A stretch of 64,000 nt of DNA from a virus (Duplodnaviria; Caudoviricetes). The translations under genes were made by a program, and so were the position numbers. Location of the stretch: the IMG/VR virus record IMGVR_UViG_3300032243_000867, positions 32,001 to 96,000 of that record. One strand, written 5' to 3'. The notes under the pieces were generated by a model, which was given only the letters and a program-made list of their open reading frames with translations, was not told the origin of the DNA and searched no databases. This document shows, piece by piece, positions 12 through 39,999 of this stretch. How positions within the stretch are numbered: position 1 is the stretch's first letter; every line of letters begins with the position of its first letter.

Positions 12-236
12 ATGGCCGCGTACACAGGGACGGAAAGCATCCCGGCGATTCCTCCGGGCATCGCGACCGCCACGGGCCTTGTGACCGCCGTCCAAGGCAC
101 GCCGTCCATTCCCTCGGGCGGCGGCGGGATCGTGACCACCTACTACTACCGCACGGCTCTCGGTGTGCGGGGCAACACCACGAGCCTAGGGTCGATCCCC
201 GCGGGGTCGGTGATCGAGCGCATCGTCACGTCGTAG
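12..236 (+). CDS. small hypothetical protein, probably virion-associated (may be the 3' end of a gene starting before the window)
   Basis: 74-aa Gly/Thr/Pro-rich ORF directly upstream of a structural block. Confidence 0.5.
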   Translation: MAAYTGTESIPAIPPGIATATGLVTAVQGTPSIPSGGGGIVTTYYYRTALGVRGNTTSLGSIPAGSVIERIVTS

Positions 237-4378: not shown

Positions 4379-4941
4379 AGTCTTTTCCCCCATGTCGTGG
4401 CGTCGAGCCTGTCAGGGTTGGGGTTGTAGGGGTGTTGTTCAGAATTCGCTATTCCCGCAAGCTCTTCATGGTGCAGCGTGCGGTCCGGGCGGGGGTCGTT
4501 ACCGTAGTGAATCATTACGTTCCATCGGCAGGGTAGGCACTTCACGGTGCCCCTCAACACGAGGTGGGAGAACAGGTCGGGCGTCCCGCAAGCGGTCCCG
4601 TCCGTGTTCTTGCCGACGTAGAGGACGTGGGGGATGGAGCGGAGAATCCCCGTCAATCCCATCAGCGTGTAGTTCTGGGGCCAGCACAGGACGGCCACCT
4701 CTACGCCCTCCGGGCACTTCCAATGCGCGAAGTAGCTCTGATGTACCTCGACCTTGGGGTGCTCCACGGGACACGGTCCCTTGTCCACGGCGTGGACGAG
4801 CGTAGCCCCCATGTCGGCCATCGTGCGGGAGAGCTCGCCGCTACCGCATCCTAAGTCCGCGACCGCGCGCCCTTCGACCACAGTGCGGAGGTAGGCCAAC
4901 TGTTCCTCTGACAGCGTGTAGTAGGTGCCCGTCCTGCTCAT
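4375..4941 (-). CDS. class I SAM-dependent methyltransferase
   Basis: VADLGCGSG motif I and HAVD motif II; start re-called at ATG 4941, coupled to the upstream minigene stop. Confidence 0.75.
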   Translation of the reverse strand: MSRTGTYYTLSEEQLAYLRTVVEGRAVADLGCGSGELSRTMADMGATLVHAVDKGPCPVEHPKVEVHQSYFAHWKCPEGVEVAVLCWPQNYTLMGLTGILRSIPHVLYVGKNTDGTACGTPDLFSHLVLRGTVKCLPCRWNVMIHYGNDPRPDRTLHHEELAGIANSEQHPYNPNPDRLDATTWGKRL

Positions 4942-5111
4942 CGGGGTTCCTTTCCCCGCAGCGCGCACCGAAACCCCAGGTTGAGGATCCGGTACGCAGG
5001 CACGCTCGTGTGGCGAGACGCCGCGCTCACCCACGACGGTACGTTGAGGCCCCAACTGCCGCCGCGGATGACGAGGTAACGGGTGTCGGTGGGCTTTGTG
5101 GGGGGTTTCAC
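4938..5111 (-). CDS. FGE/CLec variable-region-like minigene, copy A (57 aa)
   Basis: Hand translation VKPPTKPTDTRYLVIRGGSWGLNVPSWVSAASRHTSVPAYRILNLGFRCALRGKEPR; GTGA/ATGA overlaps at both ends. Confidence 0.75.
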   Translation of the reverse strand: MKPPTKPTDTRYLVIRGGSWGLNVPSWVSAASRHTSVPAYRILNLGFRCALRGKEPR

Positions 5112-9742: not shown

Positions 9743-9928
9743 TCAGCGGAGTATCGTTCGCGGTTCCCTTCCCCGAAGGGCGCACCGAAACCCGGCATCG
9801 TCGAGACGGCACGCAGGCACGTCCGCGCCGCGAGACGCGGCGCGCACCCTCGACGGTACGTTGCTGTACCAACAGCCGCCGCGTTGGACGCGAAGGCGGG
9901 TGTCAGTGGGCTTGGTGGTGGGGTTCAT
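9743..9928 (-). CDS. FGE/CLec variable-region-like minigene, copy B (61 aa)
   Basis: MNPTTKPTDTRLRVQRGGCWYSNVPSRVRAASRGADVPACRLDDAGFRCALRGREPRTILR; ATG overlaps the stop of copy C. Confidence 0.75.
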   Translation of the reverse strand: MNPTTKPTDTRLRVQRGGCWYSNVPSRVRAASRGADVPACRLDDAGFRCALRGREPRTILR

Positions 9929-10083
9929 ACTCGGGGGCTCCTTCCCGGCAGGTGGGTTCGGAACCCGTGGTCGCGGAAAAAAATTGTGGGCTTGTACTCT
10001 TGAAACGACGCGGCGGGTAGGAAGGCCGCGAGGTGGTACCAAGACCCGCCACGAATCACGCGAAGCCGGTTGTCGATCCTCAC
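9925..10083 (-). CDS. FGE/CLec variable-region-like minigene, copy C (52 aa)
   Basis: VRIDNRLRVIRGGSWYHLAAFLPAASFQEYKPTIFFRDHGFRTHLPGRSPRV; GTGA-coupled. Confidence 0.7.
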   Translation of the reverse strand: MRIDNRLRVIRGGSWYHLAAFLPAASFQEYKPTIFFRDHGFRTHLPGRSPRV

Positions 10084-20014: not shown

Positions 20015-22999
20015 ATGCTCGACGGGAACCATTTCCCCAATTTGCTCAGTGAGTTCGTGTACACGCGCACCTACGCGCGATGGCTGGAGGACGCCAAGCG
20101 CCGCGAAACGTGGCCCGAGACCGTCCACCGTTACGTCAGCTACATTTTCAAGGACAAGCCCGCGCCCCACGGGTTGCGCGAGAGCACTGAGAAGCTCATC
20201 CTCAACTTCGACGTGCTCGGTTCGATGCGGGCGCTGTGGTGCGCGGGTCCCGCGATGGACCGCGATAACGTGTGCGGCTACAACTGCTCGTTCTTGCCCG
20301 TGGACAACCTCCGGGCGTTCAGCGAGGCTTTGGCGATTCTCATGGCAGGGACGGGCGTGGGGTTCAGCGTCGAGCGCACGTTCACCGACAACCTCCCGGT
20401 GATCGCGCACCCCACGGGCGACGCCATCGACTACATCATCCAAGACTCGACCGAAGGCTGGGCGGACGCCGTGTACTTCGGGATGGTGCAATACCACCTC
20501 GGGCACCGTGTGAACTGGAACTACTCCCTCATCCGCGCGAAGGGCGAAAGGCTCCACACCAAGGGCGGTCGGGCTAGCGGGCCGGAACCCCTCAAGCGCG
20601 TGCTGGACTTCGCCGGGGAGACCATCGCCGGGGCGGCGGGCCGGAAGCTCAAGCCCATCGAAGCGCATGACATCATGTGCATGATCGCGGAGATCGTGAT
20701 GGTGGGTGGGTTCCGTCGGGCGAGCCTCATCTCGTTCAGCGACGTAGAAGACACAGAGATGCGCGACGCCAAGGACTGGTCGAAGGGCACGTTCCCTTCC
20801 ATCCGTTACATGGCGAACAACAGCGCCGTGTACACGGACCGCCCCACGGAGGAGGTGTTCTGGCGCGAGTGGAACTCCCTCGCCAAGTCGGGCTCGGGCG
20901 AGCGGGGTTTCTACATCGTCAGCCCCAGCAACGTCGCCAAGCGCGGCGGAGAGTTTCGCAGTAACCCCTGCGTCACCGGGGACACCCGCGTGATGACCGA
21001 CCGTGGCATGGTCCAAATCCGCGACCTCGTCGGCAAGCCCACCAAGCTCCTGCTCGACCAGCGGTTTGGCACGGGCGGCTTCGGACACACCACGGAGGCT
21101 GGGGCGTTCAAGACGGGCACCAAGGAGGTGTACCGCCTCACCACGGAGGAGGGGTACACCCTGCGCCTCACGGCTGACCACCGGGTGATGACTTCTCGCG
21201 GGTGGGTCGAGGCCCGTCACCTCACCCCCGCCGACCGCATTCACGTCACCAACAATGGCGGCGGTTTCGGCACCAAGGGGGACGAGAATCTCGGGATGCT
21301 GGCCGGATGGCTCGCCGGGGACGGCTGCGTCCTCGACAACGGGGTCCCCCGCTTCTACTTCTACGGCGAGAAGCGTGAGCTCACGGCTCGCATGGCCGTG
21401 GCAGCGCAAGCCGTCACCGGAGGACCGCTCCCGGTGGCTCACACCTACGCCCCGGCTGATCGGGACACCTTCCAGAGCGCGGACCTTCGCGAGTACCTCG
21501 GGGGGATGACCAAGGGGCGCGTGCCAGAGTTCGTCTGGCAGGGCTCCAAAGACTGCCAGCGGAGCTACCTCTCGGCGCTGTTCAGCGCCGATGGTTCCGT
21601 GCAGGGCACTCGTGAGACGGGTGCCTCGGTGCGTCTATCGTCCGTGGAGGCCGACCTTCTCCGTGACGTGCAGATGCTCCTGCTGAACTTCGGCGTGGCG
21701 TCGAAGCTCTACCTTGACCGTCGCGAGGCGGGGACCCGTCTACTGCCCGATGGCAATGGTGGTCTGTCCCCGTACCCCTGCCAAGCCGACCATGAGCTCA
21801 TGGTGAGCAAGGCTAGCCTCGTCGTGTTCCACCGCAACGTGGGTTTCATGCTGGCGTCCAAGGACGCCAAGCTGAAGTCCGTCGTGGACGGTTTCGTTCG
21901 CGGCCCCTACGCTGAGAAGTTTGTCGCTCGGGTGGCTTCGGTCGAGTCCTGCGGCACCGAAGACGTGTACGACCTCACGGAGCCGACGACTCACTCGTTC
22001 GTCGCGAACGGGATGGTGGTCCACAACTGCGGCGAGATTTTGCTCCGCTTCAAGCGCGCGACCGACCCGTGGACGGGCGCGGGCGGCGGTGGGCAGTTCT
22101 GCAACCTCACGGCGGCGGTGATGCGCCCGCACGACACCCTTGAAACGATGGCCGAGAAGGTTCACGCGGCGACGTGGCTGGGGGTGATTCAGTCCTCTTA
22201 CACGCACTTCCCCTACCTTCGCCCCGCGTGGAAGGAGCTTTGCGACGAGGACCGCCTCGTGGGCGTGGACATCACGGGCCAGTGCGACAACCCGGCGCTC
22301 TCGGGCGACGAGGAAGCGATGACGTACCTGAACGCCCTCGCACGTTCGACGGCGATCATCGCGGCGGCAACCCTCAAGGTTAACCGCCCTGCGGCGATCA
22401 CCTGCGGCAAGCCCAGCGGGAACTCGTCGCAGTTCGTGGACTGCGCCAGCGGGTTTCACACCCGGTACGCGAAGTATTACCACCGTCACGTTCGCATCTC
22501 GTCCAAGGACCCGCTGTACCACCTCGTCCGCGACCAAGGCGTGCCGCTGTTCAAGGAGAACGGGCAAGAACACCTCGACGACGACAAGGTGGACGTGTGG
22601 GTGGCACGGTTCCCGGTGAAGTCTCCCGACGGGGCGAAGCTCCGCGACCACGAGCGCGCCCTCCAGCAGTTGGAGCGGTACCGACAGATCATGCGGACGT
22701 GGTGCGGGACGAAGGGCCACAACCAGAGCGCAACCGTCTACGTCCGCGACGAAGAATGGCAGGAGGTGGGCGAGTGGCTCTGGAAGCACTTCGACGAGGT
22801 GACCGGGCTGTCGTTCCTGAACTACGACGGCGGGGCGTACCGTCTCGCCCCCTACGTCGAGATCACCGAAGAGGAGTATCTCAAGTCCTCGGCGGAGATG
22901 CCGCGCGTGCGGTTCGACCTCCTCCACCGTTACGAGACGGGCGACATGGGCGACGGTGCCCGTGAAGCCGCGTGCGTGGGTGGGGCGTGCGAGGTTTGA
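20015..22999 (+). CDS. nrdJ: class II (B12-dependent) ribonucleotide reductase with intein
   Basis: YNCS, GTGVGFS, NP|CGE split by intein, TCGKPSGN, C-terminal ACVGGACEV; GAGGAG RBS before ATG 20015. Confidence 0.92.
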   Translation: MLDGNHFPNLLSEFVYTRTYARWLEDAKRRETWPETVHRYVSYIFKDKPAPHGLRESTEKLILNFDVLGSMRALWCAGPAMDRDNVCGYNCSFLPVDNLRAFSEALAILMAGTGVGFSVERTFTDNLPVIAHPTGDAIDYIIQDSTEGWADAVYFGMVQYHLGHRVNWNYSLIRAKGERLHTKGGRASGPEPLKRVLDFAGETIAGAAGRKLKPIEAHDIMCMIAEIVMVGGFRRASLISFSDVEDTEMRDAKDWSKGTFPSIRYMANNSAVYTDRPTEEVFWREWNSLAKSGSGERGFYIVSPSNVAKRGGEFRSNPCVTGDTRVMTDRGMVQIRDLVGKPTKLLLDQRFGTGGFGHTTEAGAFKTGTKEVYRLTTEEGYTLRLTADHRVMTSRGWVEARHLTPADRIHVTNNGGGFGTKGDENLGMLAGWLAGDGCVLDNGVPRFYFYGEKRELTARMAVAAQAVTGGPLPVAHTYAPADRDTFQSADLREYLGGMTKGRVPEFVWQGSKDCQRSYLSALFSADGSVQGTRETGASVRLSSVEADLLRDVQMLLLNFGVASKLYLDRREAGTRLLPDGNGGLSPYPCQADHELMVSKASLVVFHRNVGFMLASKDAKLKSVVDGFVRGPYAEKFVARVASVESCGTEDVYDLTEPTTHSFVANGMVVHNCGEILLRFKRATDPWTGAGGGGQFCNLTAAVMRPHDTLETMAEKVHAATWLGVIQSSYTHFPYLRPAWKELCDEDRLVGVDITGQCDNPALSGDEEAMTYLNALARSTAIIAAATLKVNRPAAITCGKPSGNSSQFVDCASGFHTRYAKYYHRHVRISSKDPLYHLVRDQGVPLFKENGQEHLDDDKVDVWVARFPVKSPDGAKLRDHERALQQLERYRQIMRTWCGTKGHNQSATVYVRDEEWQEVGEWLWKHFDEVTGLSFLNYDGGAYRLAPYVEITEEEYLKSSAEMPRVRFDLLHRYETGDMGDGAREAACVGGACEV
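20969..22027 (+). mobile_element. intein with LAGLIDADG homing endonuclease (353 aa) in NrdJ
   Basis: Begins CVTGDT, ends VVHN before Cys; LAGWLAGDG and LSALFSADG blocks. Confidence 0.92.
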
Positions 23000-23038: not shown

Positions 23039-25369
23039 ATGCCCCCCATCCCCAAGTCTCCCTCTGCCTACTACTCAGGGCGGGTTCACTCGGTCAACTT
23101 CTCGGACGAGTCCAAGGCGTTCTACGTTCTGCGCGTCGCGCTGGACGCGGAGAACTTGACCGGCAACCTCCCCTCCAACATCGTTACCGCGCGCGGGGAA
23201 ATCCCCGGCGTGAAGATCGCCGTGGGGACTTGGTTCGGTTTCGAGGCCGCGTGGGACGATCACCCCAAGTACGGGCGGCAACTGAAGATCACCCGCGCCC
23301 CCGTCCTCAAGAACGGGTGGGATGACGACACCTGTGAGAAGATCCTCACCTCCCACGGTATCGGTTCCGCCATCGCCGTAAAGCTCCGCGAGGCTTTCAA
23401 GGGAGATATGCCCGCCGCTCTGGCAGACCCGGAGCGATTGAAGGCCGTTCCGGGTATCACCTCGTTCGTTGCGGAGCACATCGCTCACAAGTGGAAGGTC
23501 GCCCGCAGCCAATTCCTCACCCTGGATTTCCTCGGGGACCTCGGGTTGCCGCAAGGGAAGATCCGTCAGGTGTGGTCCACCTTCGGGGATCGTGCTCAGG
23601 ATGTACTGGCGACGGACCCGTGGTCCCTTCTGGAGATCGACGGAATCGCTTTCTCGGACTGCGACCTTGTCGCCCAGCGCCTCGGTCTGGACTGCTCCCC
23701 GTCGAACCTCAACCGCGTGAAAGGGGCGGTTCTTCACGCCTCGAAGTTCTCGAAGCGCCTCGGCCACCTGTACCTCTCTTCGGGTGAGCTCCTCGGTTCC
23801 GTCCGACCCCTCGATCCTCTGATGACCGACCGGGACATCGCCACGGGCTTGAAGGCCCTGATGGACGAGAAGCGGGTGGCGGTGGACCGGGTGACGGCAC
23901 CGGGCATCACGGCTATCTACGACCCGTGGTCCTACGAGACGGAGAACGGCTCGGCGGCGCTCCTTCGGGAACGGCTCACGACGGCGGCGATTCCGACCGA
24001 CCGCGCTGCTCGGTACGCGAAGTCTATTCTGGGCGAGGAAGTTCCGGGCACCCTGCGCGAAGCCGGGGAGAAGTACCTATCGCGGGTGGGGTCCAACCTG
24101 GGCATCGCCCTCTCCACCAAGCAGACAGAAGCCGTGCTGAACGCGCTCACCGAGAGCGTGTCTATCATCACGGGTCTTCCGGGCTCGGGCAAGACGACCT
24201 CTCTCCGCATGGCCCTGACCCTTTTGCACGAGGCGGGCGTGCAACCTTTGGTGGTGGCCCCCACGGGAATCGCGGCGAAACGGGTCGCTTCCGTCACTGG
24301 GGTCACCGCCAGTACGATCCACCGCGCCTTCAAGGCCAAGGGGATCGAGAGCGAGGGGGGGCGAGAATCTACCTACGCGGGCGTCGTCGGTGAACGGGGG
24401 GACGGGTCGCTCTCGGACGGTTCGGATGAGGAGTGGGGCTACGGGCCGGGAAAGCCTCACCCTGCTGAAGTAGTAGTGATCGACGAGTCCAGCATGGTAG
24501 ACCAAGCCGTGCTGTACCGGGTGCTGTCGTGTACCCGCCCGGACTGCCGAATCGTGTTCGTCGGAGACGCCGCTCAGTTACCGTCCGTGGGGGCGGGCAA
24601 CGTCCTGCGCGACCTCATCGAATCGGGCCGTTTCCCTACCGTGTCCTTGACGGAGATTTTTCGTCAAGCCGACACCAGCCCCATCGTTACGGCTGCACAC
24701 GACATTTTTCACGGTCGAGTGCCCGAGGCCCCGGTGAAGTCCGACTTCTCCCTGCTTTCGCTAGCGGACGATGAAGAGGTACTGAAAACGATCCTGTCCG
24801 TGTCGGAGAAGCTGTACGGGCAGCGGGCGAATTTTCAGGTGCTCTCCCCCCGGCACGCGGGCACGCTGGGCGTTACCAACCTCAACACCCGGTTGCGTGC
24901 GATCCTCAACCCGGCGCAGCCCGGTCTGAACGAGGTCACTCTCGGAGGGGAGACGCTTCGGGAAGGGGACCGTGTGATCGTCTGCAAGAACGACTACAAG
25001 CTGGGGGTGTTCAACGGCGACGTGGCCAAGGTGAACTTCATCGACAAGAACGCCAAAGAGATCGAAATCAAGATCCACGGCCCGCCCGTCGTGCTTGTGC
25101 GTATCCCCCGAGCTTCAGCCGGAACCCTTCTCCGTCTCGCCTACGCCGTGACGGTCCACCGCTGCCAAGGACTGGAGTACGACGCGGTGGTGATGCCGAT
25201 TGTAGACGGGTTCGCTCACCAGCTACAGCGCAACCTGTTCTACACGGCCATCACCCGCGCCAAGAAGAAGGTCCTGCTGGTAGGAACCCACCGCGCTATG
25301 GAACGGGCGGTGAGCAACAATCGAGAGGACGCGCGGAACACTCTGTTCGCAGCGCGCCTGAGGGCGTAA
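23039..25369 (+). CDS. recD2: RecD2-like SF1B helicase
   Basis: GLPGSGKTT, APTG, VIDESSM, GDAAQLP, EIFRQ, YAVTVHRCQG, YTAITRAK; HhH-rich N-terminus. Confidence 0.9.
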   Translation: MPPIPKSPSAYYSGRVHSVNFSDESKAFYVLRVALDAENLTGNLPSNIVTARGEIPGVKIAVGTWFGFEAAWDDHPKYGRQLKITRAPVLKNGWDDDTCEKILTSHGIGSAIAVKLREAFKGDMPAALADPERLKAVPGITSFVAEHIAHKWKVARSQFLTLDFLGDLGLPQGKIRQVWSTFGDRAQDVLATDPWSLLEIDGIAFSDCDLVAQRLGLDCSPSNLNRVKGAVLHASKFSKRLGHLYLSSGELLGSVRPLDPLMTDRDIATGLKALMDEKRVAVDRVTAPGITAIYDPWSYETENGSAALLRERLTTAAIPTDRAARYAKSILGEEVPGTLREAGEKYLSRVGSNLGIALSTKQTEAVLNALTESVSIITGLPGSGKTTSLRMALTLLHEAGVQPLVVAPTGIAAKRVASVTGVTASTIHRAFKAKGIESEGGRESTYAGVVGERGDGSLSDGSDEEWGYGPGKPHPAEVVVIDESSMVDQAVLYRVLSCTRPDCRIVFVGDAAQLPSVGAGNVLRDLIESGRFPTVSLTEIFRQADTSPIVTAAHDIFHGRVPEAPVKSDFSLLSLADDEEVLKTILSVSEKLYGQRANFQVLSPRHAGTLGVTNLNTRLRAILNPAQPGLNEVTLGGETLREGDRVIVCKNDYKLGVFNGDVAKVNFIDKNAKEIEIKIHGPPVVLVRIPRASAGTLLRLAYAVTVHRCQGLEYDAVVMPIVDGFAHQLQRNLFYTAITRAKKKVLLVGTHRAMERAVSNNREDARNTLFAARLRA

Positions 25370-37680: not shown

Positions 37681-38403
37681 GTGAACTCCCCCATCGGTGA
37701 GTGGCTGGAAGCCCATCTCACCACCCTCTCCCTCTCCGAAGACTGCGAAGGCTACCTGCTGGGGCGAGGCGCGAGCCCCGACACCATCGAGCGGTTGGGC
37801 ATCCGCGAGTGGGAGCCAGCATCTACCCCCGCTCCCAGCGAGCACTTCACGTCCCGCTACGGTCGGCACGGCGAGAAGCTGACCGAGATGGTCACGATCC
37901 CCCTGCGTGGCCCCACGGGCACGCTCACGGGGATCGAAGCCCGTTCGTGGCACGAGAAGCGGGTGACGGACTTCCGGGTACCCGAGGCCGAGTGGAACCC
38001 CGTCGCTCTCGACCTACCGAGGGCGGCGGAAGCCATGTGGGCGGGCGGGTCCGTGTGGGTGGTCGAGGGCGTGTACGACCTGTGCGCCTTGGATTGGTGC
38101 ATCCCCAAGACCGACGCGGTGATCTCGACCCTGCGAGCGGGTCTGGGCAAAGACGTGCTGGAGTTTTTGGCCCGGTTCTGCACCAACACCGTGTACATGG
38201 TGTACGACAACGATGACACCGGGCGGCGGGCCACCCACGGCTGGAAAGACCCCGCCACGGGGAAGTACCGCCCCGGCGCTCTCGACCTCCTCAAGCGGGC
38301 TGGCGTGAGGGCGGTGGACTTCCGCTACCGGGGGAAAGACCCCGGTGAGGTGTGGCGAGCGGGCGGGCTGTCCAAGTTGCGGGAGACGTTCGGGCGGGCG
38401 TAA
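37681..38403 (+). CDS. dnaG: DNA primase, TOPRIM core (no zinc-binding domain)
   Basis: VVEGVYD, YDNDDTG and KDPGE; GTG 8 nt after GGGCGTAA. Confidence 0.8.
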   Translation: MNSPIGEWLEAHLTTLSLSEDCEGYLLGRGASPDTIERLGIREWEPASTPAPSEHFTSRYGRHGEKLTEMVTIPLRGPTGTLTGIEARSWHEKRVTDFRVPEAEWNPVALDLPRAAEAMWAGGSVWVVEGVYDLCALDWCIPKTDAVISTLRAGLGKDVLEFLARFCTNTVYMVYDNDDTGRRATHGWKDPATGKYRPGALDLLKRAGVRAVDFRYRGKDPGEVWRAGGLSKLRETFGRA

Positions 38404-38411
38404 CGTCCCGC

Positions 38412-38885
38412 ATGAGCCCCGAAGCTATCGTCATCGCCATCCTCGCCCTGTTCCCCCACATGAGCGGGAACAACCGCCGCTGCATCGAGACGCAGCAAGA
38501 CCGCATCGTCCAACAGCTTCGTGAGGTATCCCAGCCCTACGAGCCCGGTGCGCCCGTGCCCCCGGTGGAGCTCACCGCTGCCGTTGCCTTCGCGGAGACA
38601 CACCTTGGGTGCGACATCAACGAAGGGGGCAACTGGGGTGCGCCCATCGACCCGCAGCACCGTCACACCGCCGGGACGCATATGCACGCCGTCCGCGCCC
38701 TGTCCCGTGGCTACCAGCGGTGCGGGGATTGGGACGGGGCCATCCTTCGGTTCCGCACGGGGCTCTGCAACCCCCGGCGCAGCCCGTCGGAGCGGGTACG
38801 CGAGCAGGGCGCGCACTACCTCCGGGTGATTCACCGCATCGTGGAGCGGGTTCGTCGGCACGCCGAAGAAGTACACGGCGAGTGA
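38412..38885 (+). CDS. putative lytic transglycosylase-like protein
   Basis: Hydrophobic N-terminus and LTAAVAFAET resembling the SLT catalytic Glu helix. Confidence 0.45.
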   Translation: MSPEAIVIAILALFPHMSGNNRRCIETQQDRIVQQLREVSQPYEPGAPVPPVELTAAVAFAETHLGCDINEGGNWGAPIDPQHRHTAGTHMHAVRALSRGYQRCGDWDGAILRFRTGLCNPRRSPSERVREQGAHYLRVIHRIVERVRRHAEEVHGE

Positions 38886-39052
38886 CCCGGAACAACCTTC
38901 CGCGTATCCTCCGGGGCGGCAGCGGGTTCAGCCTAGAGACGGTGCCCGTTCGCGCGGCGACTCGCTACACGGTCGGGCCTTTGGTTTTGTACGACAGCGT
39001 CGGGTTTCGGTGTGGGTTGCGGGGCAGACAACCCGTGGGGGCTAAACCGTGA
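38882..39052 (+). CDS. FGE/CLec variable-region-like minigene, copy D (56 aa)
   Basis: VTRNNLPRILRGGSGFSLETVPVRAATRYTVGPLVLYDSVGFRCGLRGRQPVGAKP. Confidence 0.7.
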   Translation: MTRNNLPRILRGGSGFSLETVPVRAATRYTVGPLVLYDSVGFRCGLRGRQPVGAKP

Positions 39053-39210
39053 GCTTCGACAAGACTATGGTCGTCATCCGAGGCGGTAGCTGGGGGGATT
39101 CCCCGGAAATCTTCGCCCGTGCGACCTTCGATTCCGCGTACTCGCCCGTGACCCGCTACGAGTGCTTCGGGTTCCGCACCCCCCTTCCAGCCCGTCAGCC
39201 ACGGGCGTAA
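39049..39210 (+). CDS. FGE/CLec variable-region-like minigene, copy E (53 aa)
   Basis: VSFDKTMVVIRGGSWGDSPEIFARATFDSAYSPVTRYECFGFRTPLPARQPRA. Confidence 0.7.
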   Translation: MSFDKTMVVIRGGSWGDSPEIFARATFDSAYSPVTRYECFGFRTPLPARQPRA

Positions 39211-39218
39211 GTACCCGT

Positions 39219-39401
39219 ATGAACCCCCCCACCACCAAACCCACCTCCGACACCCTTCACCGCGTCTACCGCGGCGGCAGTTGGTGCAGCGGACCGTCGT
39301 TGGTACGCGCGGCTCGCAGCGCGGTCGTGCCTGCGTTCCGGTACAGCATCATCGGCTTCCGTTGCGCGCTGCGGGGATGTGAGAGGAAGGTGAAGCCGTG
39401 A
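39219..39401 (+). CDS. FGE/CLec variable-region-like minigene, copy F (60 aa)
   Basis: MNPPTTKPTSDTLHRVYRGGSWCSGPSLVRAARSAVVPAFRYSIIGFRCALRGCERKVKP; ATG 8 nt after GGGCGTAA. Confidence 0.75.
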   Translation: MNPPTTKPTSDTLHRVYRGGSWCSGPSLVRAARSAVVPAFRYSIIGFRCALRGCERKVKP

Positions 39402-39571
39402 GTGAGTCCAAGACCGACACCCGTTACCTCGTCTTCCGCGGCGGCGGTAGCTGGTACAGCTGTGGGCCGTCGAGGGTGCGCGCGGCCATTCGCAACGCGG
39501 ACGAGCCTGCGTACCGTGACGACAACCTGGGGTTTCGGTGCGCGCTGCGGGGAAGGGAACCACGGGCGTAA
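39398..39571 (+). CDS. FGE/CLec variable-region-like minigene, copy G (57 aa)
   Basis: VSESKTDTRYLVFRGGGSWYSCGPSRVRAAIRNADEPAYRDDNLGFRCALRGREPRA. Confidence 0.75.
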   Translation: MSESKTDTRYLVFRGGGSWYSCGPSRVRAAIRNADEPAYRDDNLGFRCALRGREPRA

Positions 39572-39579
39572 GTACCTAT

Positions 39580-39999
39580 ATGGACGACGACACTCTCAAG
39601 CAGTTCCTCCGATGGCGCGGTGTCCGCAACCCCTGCCCCAAGTGCAACGGGCGCGGCTGCTACCAGTACAGCAGCGGGGCGACGTGGCGCGGCGGCATGG
39701 GCACGGCATCCTACGAGTGGGACGTGTGCGACGTGTGCTGGGGCACGGGCGACGAATCCCGCACGGGCGTGGACCTCCGCAAGCAGCGAGACGAGTTCAA
39801 CGCCACCGTGGCGTTGGAAGCTGGGAAGCACCTGTCGCGGTTCGTCGGCGGCATCGGTGAAACGCGCCCCGCCATCGGGGCCATCGCGGACGAACTGGAC
39901 CGCCTTGCACGGGGCCGGAAGGATCGCCCCCGTCACTTTTACACGTTGGTGGGCTACATCGCGGACAAGGTGCGGGACATGGCGAAGGTGCCGACGTGA
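39580..39999 (+). CDS. hypothetical protein with DnaJ-type CxxCxGxG zinc finger
   Basis: CPKCNGRG and CDVCWGTG. Confidence 0.65.
   Translation: MDDDTLKQFLRWRGVRNPCPKCNGRGCYQYSSGATWRGGMGTASYEWDVCDVCWGTGDESRTGVDLRKQRDEFNATVALEAGKHLSRFVGGIGETRPAIGAIADELDRLARGRKDRPRHFYTLVGYIADKVRDMAKVPT

Follow-up and report, generated by a model that had tools for sequence, protein, structure and literature searches.

Diversity-generating retroelements (DGRs), variable regions (VRs) of the formylglycine-generating enzyme (FGE) type, multiple and remote targets of one element, and activity in trans are already known. In ordinary DGR targets, the last segment of about 50 residues is the variable region that contacts the ligand. 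Surveys report at most 7-8 targets per DGR element (Wu 2018, PMC5758913), and because the Roux 2021 survey initially set aside DGR targets shorter than 300 nt, targets of about 170 nt may be under-reported. Here we describe a family of minigenes of 50-60 aa in a 64,000-nt stretch of phage DNA (the window), which covers bases 32001-96000 of the 265,895-bp IMG/VR virus record IMGVR_UViG_3300032243_000867 (Caudoviricetes; G000 below). Each minigene, called a module here, encodes only the C-terminal segment of an FGE-type C-type lectin (CLec) domain.

We consider it probable that the modules are free-standing C-terminal subunits of a split FGE-type CLec domain, that is, interchangeable tips that are rewritten in trans. 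The variable tip would then be a gene of its own that occurs about 26 times per genome, with one truncated body as its partner, whereas the known DGR targets are full-length. In the literature that we searched, we found no VR as a free gene of 50-60 aa, no dedicated truncated scaffold, no genome with about 15 DGR-type and 26 total copies, and no virus VRs that match a bacterial template.

Results

The modules match only the end of the FGE profile

G000 has a GC content of about 64% and a CheckV completeness of 59%, and its relatives reach 350-392 kb (contig L116, 350 kb; contig L114, 392 kb). Three related phage genomes (G001-G003) were also scanned; L-numbers denote contigs, and L010 comes from G003. 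The first-pass annotation of the window had reported four consecutive open reading frames (ORFs) of 53-60 aa, modules D to G, together with three more copies, A to C. All of them are real ORFs, and the GTGA overlaps and the 8-nt spacing within D-G are present as described (Table 1). The size given for the family, seven members, was an undercount: with a hidden Markov model (HMM) trained on the seven copies of the window, 26 modules were detected in G000, 4 at 5.0-5.6 kb, 7 in the window and 15 at 252-264 kb. The assignment to the C-terminal segment of the FGE/CLec fold holds, since modules D to G match only positions 207-254 of the 255 in the Pfam FGE-sulfatase profile PF03781, and the minigenes overall span no more than positions 204-254. 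The match is significant for module G, as it is for the scaffold described below, and it falls under the cut-off for F, E and D.

FGE catalysis uses a Cys pair in an RGGS-x-C-x4-C-R segment (Cys336 and Cys341 in the human protein). No conserved Cys pair follows RGGSW in the 57 modules that we aligned, and only the structural Cys of GFRC is kept. The absence of the catalytic pair excludes true FGE catalysis; the modules are binding modules, not enzymes.

A truncated scaffold and a conserved split

A gene for an FGE domain without its last ~55 aa, proposed in the first-pass annotation as something to look for, is present in the same genome. The sole other FGE match in G000 is a 289-aa gene, the scaffold, located 192 kb from the window array. 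It consists of an N-terminal domain of about 115 aa of unknown kind, for which the search gave no lead, followed by FGE profile positions 12-193 (E 9.4e-32), and it ends in ...GNVWEWTSTVHK*, six residues past GNVWEW. In full-length relatives, RVxRGGSW...GFR comes 15-25 residues beyond this end point. A complete FGE domain of about 255 profile positions was not found in one chain and is complete only across two chains. When the scaffold was searched against PDB profiles, SUMF2/FGE was matched at 1e-49 and TvpA at E 3e-24; EgtB and FGE were the top Foldseek matches, and the AlphaFold2 model of the scaffold alone is an FGE-like body with a predicted local distance difference test score (pLDDT) of 91. 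A tblastn search of GenBank phages returned only distant FGE proteins of Microcystis and Acinetobacter phages.

The first module behind the scaffold, M1, starts in an ATGA that overlaps the scaffold stop, and five further modules follow M1 head to tail with a period of 170-179 bp. The scaffold/M1 junction reads AAATGA, AAGTGA, AAGTGA and TAGTGA in four related phages, and contig L009 has two consecutive stops there. Because the stop is always present, the start codon alternates between ATG and GTG, and one phage carries two stops, assembly error, read-through and programmed frameshifting were rejected; no slippery site was found at the junction either. The truncation point is kept much more widely, as 41 metagenomic protein clusters (43-94% identity) recovered by protein search all end 5-12 aa past GNVWEW, and RGG...GFR lies in the same chain in 56 of the 72 homologues at greater distance. 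In each of the eight contigs that we looked at (G000, L002, L008, L009, L010, L114, L116 and L117), the scaffold is followed by modules. Among the four close orthologues in G000, L002, L008 and L009, the scaffold is under purifying selection, with an omega of 0.2-0.4 at a dS of about 0.6; against the 51%-identical L010 scaffold, omega is 0.38-0.58.

Several further features of the scaffold locus were recorded. The scaffold 3' end together with M1 (L001 17780-18020, equal to G000 263780-264020) is 97-98% nucleotide-identical among four phages, in which the scaffold 5' half is only 50-70% identical, and dS is about 0.05 for M1 versus about 0.6 for the scaffold. M1 keeps its conserved adenines, so this identity is not a DGR effect. 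At L010 5683-6714, one module ORF is continuous, with no intervening stop, with a scaffold of a second type (51% identity to that of G000). Module and scaffold may be fused here, or the domain may be circularly permuted; at the syntenic place, G000 has no scaffold of this second type. In L117 (5568-9869), the two genes directly ahead of the scaffold encode a MoxR-like AAA_5 ATPase and a protein with CobT_C/vWA. This combination is reminiscent of vWA-MoxR conflict systems, but it is also the common cobS/cobT pair of phages.

Two module types and an adenine-specific signature

In the alignment, the 57 modules divide into a "GFRC...REPR" type and a "GFRT" type. Of the 26 copies in G000, 15 belong to the GFRC type, among them A, B, F, G and the decayed D, while E, C and M1 are among those of the GFRT type. 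For the GFRC type, 34 copies from six contigs were analyzed at the nine most variable codon columns, each of which holds 8-11 different residues. Here 283 of 301 hypervariable codons end in C, compared with a genome-wide fraction of 0.45 for C at the third codon position (C3), and among the four-fold-degenerate codons 51 of 58 end in C versus 25 expected. The residues K, E, Q, M and W account for 2 of the 301 hypervariable residues versus 15% genome-wide. Within the VR core, adenine occurs in none of the 69 invariant nucleotide columns and is a common state in 27 of the 42 variable ones. The GFRT type, used as control, is genome-like at the same columns (C3 58%; K/E/Q/M/W 26 of 207). The GFRC group therefore bears the signature of adenine-specific mutagenesis from AAC-rich template codons, and the GFRT type evolves by ordinary divergence; since the GFRC copies are related, the P-values of the signature overstate independence. 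The earlier reading of the window copies as VR-only minigenes needs a correction here, in that the DGR signature is confined to the GFRC type; E and C have none, and D is badly decayed.

A matching template repeat in a bacterial genome

From the alignment, the template codons were inferred as AGT, AACx3, GAA, AAC, ACG, AAC, GAG, AAC, AACx3 and ATC. The corresponding pattern gave a single match among 185,579 bacterial species representatives, namely L118, a 2,470-bp contig of a metagenome-assembled genome (MAG) titled "uncultured delta proteobacterium" (G004). This contig encodes a DGR-type reverse transcriptase (RT) (RVT_1 E 3e-14) with LGNLTSQ and YMDD motifs. A template repeat (TR) begins 30 nt past the RT end and reads RVNRGGSWNNNEPSWVRAASRNTNEPANRNNNIGFRCA, with the translation RVNRGGSW-NNNE-PSWVRAASR-NTNE-PANR-NNNI-GFRCA, and the opposite strand encodes a full-length, unsplit FGE target (...GNVWEWTSTVDGNNRVHRGGSW...GFRCARGVM*). 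The inferred adenine codons were all correct, and two columns in which adenine had been guessed (35 and 40) were wrong. The AAC-rich template beside a DGR RT that the first-pass annotation had expected therefore exists and matches the modules, but it was found in a bacterial MAG and not in the sampled phage DNA.

The match was quantified as differences from the TR at non-adenine positions and as changed template adenines (Table 1). Five phage copies deviate from the TR at 0/88, 1/88, 1/88, 1/88 and 2/88 non-adenine sites, with 11-18 of the 26 adenines changed, and for unrelated modules the deviation is 34-50/88. Agreement with the TR at every site other than adenine is seen in the best copies of the family and is only approximate in the window copies. 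Twelve of the 15 GFRC copies fit the TR at no more than 10 non-adenine mismatches, and three, including D, fit poorly. The homology between TR and VR runs from CTCCGCGTC to GGTGCGCGC, and the flanks are unrelated; its confinement to the TR bounds fits templated rewriting and not capture of a host gene. The adenine-free GGGTTTCGGTGCGCGC stretch is common to the 3' ends of TR and VR, and divergence starts right after it.

Comparisons between modules place most of the differences at the variable sites. Module G and its positional orthologue in G001 differ at 13 of 28 variable sites and at 5 of 83 others, all five being synonymous, and B and its paralogue at G000 252.3 kb differ at 5 of 28 variable sites and at 0 of 83 others. 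Positional orthologues have been rewritten since the phages diverged. As the set of variable sites was defined on the same alignment, the independent support for these comparisons is the TR itself. Relative to the TR, the pooled framework pN/pS is 0.42, and the framework changes of module F are 7 synonymous to 1 non-synonymous, so that some protein-level constraint persists. Compared with the copies by the scaffold, modules F and G have an older or frozen look and are not pristine; they may be frozen VRs or the products of a variant TR.

A second class of phage VR (RGGSW-NITSAT-FVRAAF...) was seen at G003 21857-22012, G002 25153-25311 and L115 1146-1328. It resembles a template on contig L142 in the MAG relative G015, with a match of only about 85% at non-adenine sites, and this hints at several host templates.

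Predicted assembly of scaffold and module

Scaffold residues 100-289 were co-folded with module G in three runs. The ipSAE was 0.93 in the three runs versus 0.00 for the best control. Of the 80 solved complexes in the calibration, 58 reached this ipSAE mark, as did 2 of the 110 mismatched pairs; these counts hold only roughly here since our own alignments were used. About 215 residue contacts were predicted, with nearly the whole peptide involved. With the scaffold, the module had a pLDDT of 75, which fell to 33 when it was paired with an unrelated chain; the pLDDT of the scaffold was 90 with the module versus 51-54 with an unrelated partner. Scaffold and module G thus pass this check, which the first-pass annotation had suggested, against the controls, and the prediction supports complementation, although it may reflect the model's memory of intact FGE domains.

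Array dynamics and open frames

Syntenic arrays with intact ORFs and changing copy number, as the first-pass annotation had proposed to look for, were found in related phage contigs. The array orthologous to D-G has seven modules in G001. The L115 version consists of a GFRC-type module, an orthologue of E, two unrelated genes and another module, and relatives carry other modules at the position of D. Stops and frameshifts piling up in relatives, which would have marked the modules as decayed fragments, were looked for and not seen. The frame is open in 25 of the 26 G000 copies and in all module hits of the relatives at E <= 0.001. The exception, at G000 261828-261920, is a degenerate copy without the RGG motif, whose orthologue is kept in L005. 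A suitable upstream start codon is available for nearly all module hits and is missing for two, and most starts lie in 4-nt overlaps, outside the TR-homologous part. Modules at only 25-35% identity still keep R-GG-W...R...GFR...R-PR.

The GGGCGTAA motif described 8 nt before the ATG is present as well, and we recast it as the duplicated junction CACGGGCGTAAGTACCnnTATG, which occurs after E and after G and also in G001. At window positions 39196-39225 and 39557-39586, CACGGGCGTAAGTACCnnTATG(A/G)AC is read after E and again after G; with this repeated junction, F and G have the appearance of an insertion, as one block, that separated an ancestral module from the gene behind it. In G001, both junctions are present as well, at the two ends of the seven-module array.

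The arrays are located among non-structural genes. Upstream of D lies a 177-aa gene, which is kept ahead of the array in G001 and L115. It has no match in Pfam or PHROGs, and a feature search alone placed it in an SLT-domain cluster at 0.95. As a cryptic scaffold this gene was rejected, since it has no FGE match in Pfam and an SLT-like lead instead. A megablast search of the region against GenBank phages gave no match. Outside the window, G000 239282-249961(-) is a single open frame of 3,560 codons with a GC content of 0.87 at third codon positions.

Table 1 Window modules, neighbouring gene, scaffold and further copies, with their fit to the TR of L118 (positions are those of the window unless stated)
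Feature	Position	Strand	Description	Pfam FGE match	Non-adenine mismatches to TR	TR adenines changed
Module A	4938-5111	-	57 aa; GFRC type; HMM E 4e-28		5/88	14/26
Module B	9743-9928	-	61 aa; GFRC type; ORF		5/88	17/26
Module C	9925-10083	-	52 aa; GFRT type; HMM E 1.7e-25; stop/start overlaps with B and with an upstream 57-aa gene		34/87	
177-aa gene upstream of D	38352-38885	+	stop overlaps start of D; lytic-transglycosylase-like lead only			
Module D	38882-39052	+	56 aa; GFRC type, strongly diverged (RGGSGF, no Trp); GTG overlaps TGA of upstream gene	positions 211-253, E 0.21 (weak)	23/88	18/26
Module E	39049-39210	+	53 aa; GFRT type, no DGR signature; GTGA overlap	positions 210-253, E 2.3e-4; below cut-off	38/88	
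Module F	39219-39401	+	60 aa; GFRC type, CERKVKP tail; ATG 8 nt past stop of E; TR-homologous VR ~39260-39369	E 6.2e-5, 23.2 bits, just under 23.3 cut-off	8/84; two codon deletions	15/24
Module G	39398-39571	+	57 aa; GFRC type; GTGA overlap; TR-homologous VR ~39428-39546	E 9.4e-6, 25.9 bits, above curated 23.3 cut-off	10/88	14/26
Scaffold	G000 263931-264800 (L001 17931-18800)	-	289 aa	positions 12-193		
Best-matching copy	G000 261.6 kb				0/88	11/26
Six other copies	one in G000, five in contigs of relatives				<=2/88	11-16/26
GFRT-type modules					30-50/88 (two at 25/88)	

The genome that carries the template

G004 is a large (8.1 Mb), GC-rich freshwater "deltaproteobacterial" MAG that looks bacterial, and its DGR contigs have a GC content of 71-72% versus 64% for the phage. 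At least three VRs or copies of the L118 TR lie on other G004 contigs, and one of the G004 targets is a caspase (Peptidase_C14)-FGE protein beside a TPR-CHAT protein; in the host, conflict systems of the caspase type appear to be what the DGR serves. Among 41 genomes searched, 7 have related TR/VR sequences, namely G004 and 6 of its 40 relatives, whose genomes measure 2.7-12 Mb. With the window, G004 shares only the TR/VR segment. The possibility that the MAG contains a mis-binned piece of phage was rejected, on the grounds that only TR/VR is shared, that the GC content is 71-72% and that relatives carry related TRs. A second template copy (AAC AAC AAC GAA...) was observed at L136 6182-6237, at the end of G004 contig C145, downstream of kinase-FGE genes; G004 may therefore contain a second DGR locus or a mixture of two strain variants. 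Freshwater and lake metagenomes are the source of hits for the phage and for the MAG contig alike.

RT searches in the phage and template scans

Neither an RT nor a TR was found in the sampled phage DNA that holds the targets (266 kb of G000, and G001-G003). An RT motif regular expression matched nothing in the phage DNA, tblastn with two genuine DGR RTs (from L112 and L113) gave nothing in G000-G003, and the large ORFs near the scaffold locus are not RT-like. Scans of IMG/VR with the TR pattern yielded no TR of the GFRC-module family and matched two unrelated DGRs. A scan of JGI metagenomes recovered only L115, the orthologue of the window array, and no template. The closest IMG/VR relative of the L118 RT is at 45%.

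Discussion

On the observed module family, the conserved split, the adenine signature and the TR match, we would build the following explanation. One phage gene would make an invariant body, consisting of the N-terminal domain and FGE profile positions 12-193, and about 26 minigenes of 50-60 aa would each make an alternative version of the last ~50 residues. We infer that the tips are translated separately, through coupling with the genes upstream of them, and that the truncated body takes up each peptide and is thereby completed in its fold, so that one scaffold gene would give a repertoire of binding specificities. The GFRC type has been written by mutagenic retrohoming from a DGR template repeat. 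Most economically, the minigenes of the phage would be rewritten in trans by the host's DGR while infection proceeds. Whether it belongs to host or phage, the DGR would keep making new tips, and the arrays would store older ones. That VR microproteins might complement a scaffold encoded elsewhere had been proposed in the first-pass annotation, and the proposal is supported by the scaffold, the synteny, the co-fold and the template results. If the pieces assemble, a single scaffold gene would give a microbial binding repertoire of separately encoded variable chains; the system is also a natural design for split, swappable binders.

A number of results weigh against this explanation. Searches with RVT_1 and Avd (PF05635) in G000, and with RVT_1 in G001-G003, found nothing. 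Neither the 57 aligned modules nor the 58 HMM hits of G000-G003 include an all-adenine copy. The link to the host is based on the TR match and the shared freshwater biome only, and the run lists of phage and MAG do not overlap, matching in biome alone. A CGGGG/CCCCG inverted repeat follows most copies, and the hairpin of the pristine copy is not better than shuffled sequences (z -1.2). Modules F and G have no such repeat downstream and are imperfect VRs, with codon indels and 9-11% non-adenine drift. VR ORFs are kept open automatically by a stop-free template, and the dN/dS of the stable modules is weak evidence of constraint, at 0.5-1.0 on very few changes. The co-fold may pass through a memory of intact FGE domains in the model, and one scaffold gene for 26 partners is stoichiometrically odd.

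As to the supplier of the RT, we lean, by a little more than an even chance, towards the host. Trans supply is mechanistically plausible from work on phage BPP-1, which does not need the sequence upstream of the VR and in which a donor on a plasmid can rewrite the phage target in trans (Guo 2011, PMC3240598), and the criterion published for trans-activity is a match that is perfect outside the adenines (PMC10907252; PMC5758913); in Dore et al. 2024 (PMC10907252), trans-activity was inferred in this manner. That the phage supplies the RT is possible but clearly less likely. Here a DGR of the phage itself (RT, TR and perhaps Avd), lying in the unassembled part, would service the minigenes in cis, and the bacterial TR would be a close relative, e.g., through a past transfer. 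As G000 is about 59% complete and a relative stands on a 392-kb contig, 120-180 kb are unseen, in which a phage-borne RT/TR copy is possible. Phage-borne DGRs are also the norm for phage targets (Wu 2018, PMC5758913), and F, G and the second VR class fit the bacterial TRs at only about 85-90% of non-adenine sites, as if another TR variant existed. Against a phage DGR stand the RT and TR searches of G000 and G001-G003, the distance of the best IMG/VR relative of the L118 RT together with IMG/VR scans without this TR family, and the embedding of the bacterial DGR in its MAG, with its GC content, its own full-length targets and TRs in related genomes. If the host does supply the RT, a more specific proposal can be made, which we regard as unlikely. 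The phage would hijack the very DGR by which the host hypermutates the sensor tips of its caspase-linked immune proteins, and dozens of VR minigenes with the effector-less scaffold would form a decoy repertoire from the sequence space of the host sensors, masking phage antigens or otherwise blunting DGR-based immunity. Such a role is conceivable because the host targets of the same template are caspase-linked putative sensors.

Three further readings are each improbable. The modules could be non-functional debris, such as fossil VRs or fragments from duplication or ectopic retrohoming, with the scaffold as a pseudogene remnant, and the strong decay of D, the drift of F and G from the template with loss of the downstream repeat, the dN/dS of stable modules near 0.5-1 on few sites and the fast turnover of array content agree with this. 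We nevertheless find it quite unlikely, as the frames are open in all but one G000 copy with starts mostly in overlaps outside the TR-homologous part, the scaffold is under purifying selection with its truncation point kept down to 43% identity, and distant modules keep the core motif, at the framework pN/pS given above. About as improbable is that the peptides act alone without the phage scaffold, e.g., by binding or poisoning FGE-domain sensors of the host. The caspase-FGE proteins beside a TPR-CHAT protein among the host targets of the same TR, and the excess of 26 peptides over one scaffold, speak for it. However, the module is predicted to be disordered without the scaffold, the host targets are full-length and leave no empty slot, and the truncated scaffold co-occurs with modules in every contig inspected. 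The least probable reading is that the arrays are silent donor cassettes that recombine into one expression site by the scaffold, in the manner of pilS/pilE or vls. Tandem arrays with conserved flanks would suit it, as would the mosaic similarity that B shows to the 252-kb and 263-kb copies and the occurrence of identical VRs at two G001 loci. However, a conserved stop sets even the first module by the scaffold apart as an ORF of its own, which leaves no full-length expression site, and each dispersed copy has a start of its own that is coupled to an unrelated gene upstream. Our preference thus stays with the free-standing tips of a split domain. Virus genes rewritten by the hypermutation machine of the host are a possibility under this explanation, and the exact match to a bacterial template offers a testable host link for an uncultured phage of about 400 kb.

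Among the described systems, the Treponema denticola DGR with TvpA (PDB 2Y3C) is close in that an FGE-type CLec VR stands at the extreme C-terminus and in that one TR serves many dispersed targets, seven non-adjacent ones in T. denticola. The best phage copies also show only A-to-N differences from the TR, in line with the criterion of Wu 2018 (PMC5758913). TvpA and its paralogues are full-length single chains with RT and TR in the same genome, whereas the phage VR is a separate ORF of 50-60 aa. The phage has about 15 DGR-type copies versus a published maximum of 7-8, and, unlike T. denticola, no RT in the sampled genome.

With the Bordetella phage BPP-1 DGR (mtd-avd-TR-brt), the modules share a ligand-binding CLec protein of a phage that is diversified at template adenines, and a GC-rich sequence at the VR 3' end that may be of the initiation-of-mutagenic-homing type. 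BPP-1 differs in that its single target is a full-length tail-fibre protein and that it carries its own cassette. Its 8-bp stem with a GRNA loop is not seen at the phage modules, which have only a weak 5-bp repeat. Finally, the L118 DGR resembles the DGR-diversified putative antigen sensors described from multicellular bacteria (Dore et al. 2024, PMC10907252; Kaur et al. 2020, PMC7159879), as it targets a caspase-FGE protein beside a TPR-CHAT protein. Those sensors are cellular, full-length and fused to effectors, and the phage version, in contrast, is split, effector-less and viral.

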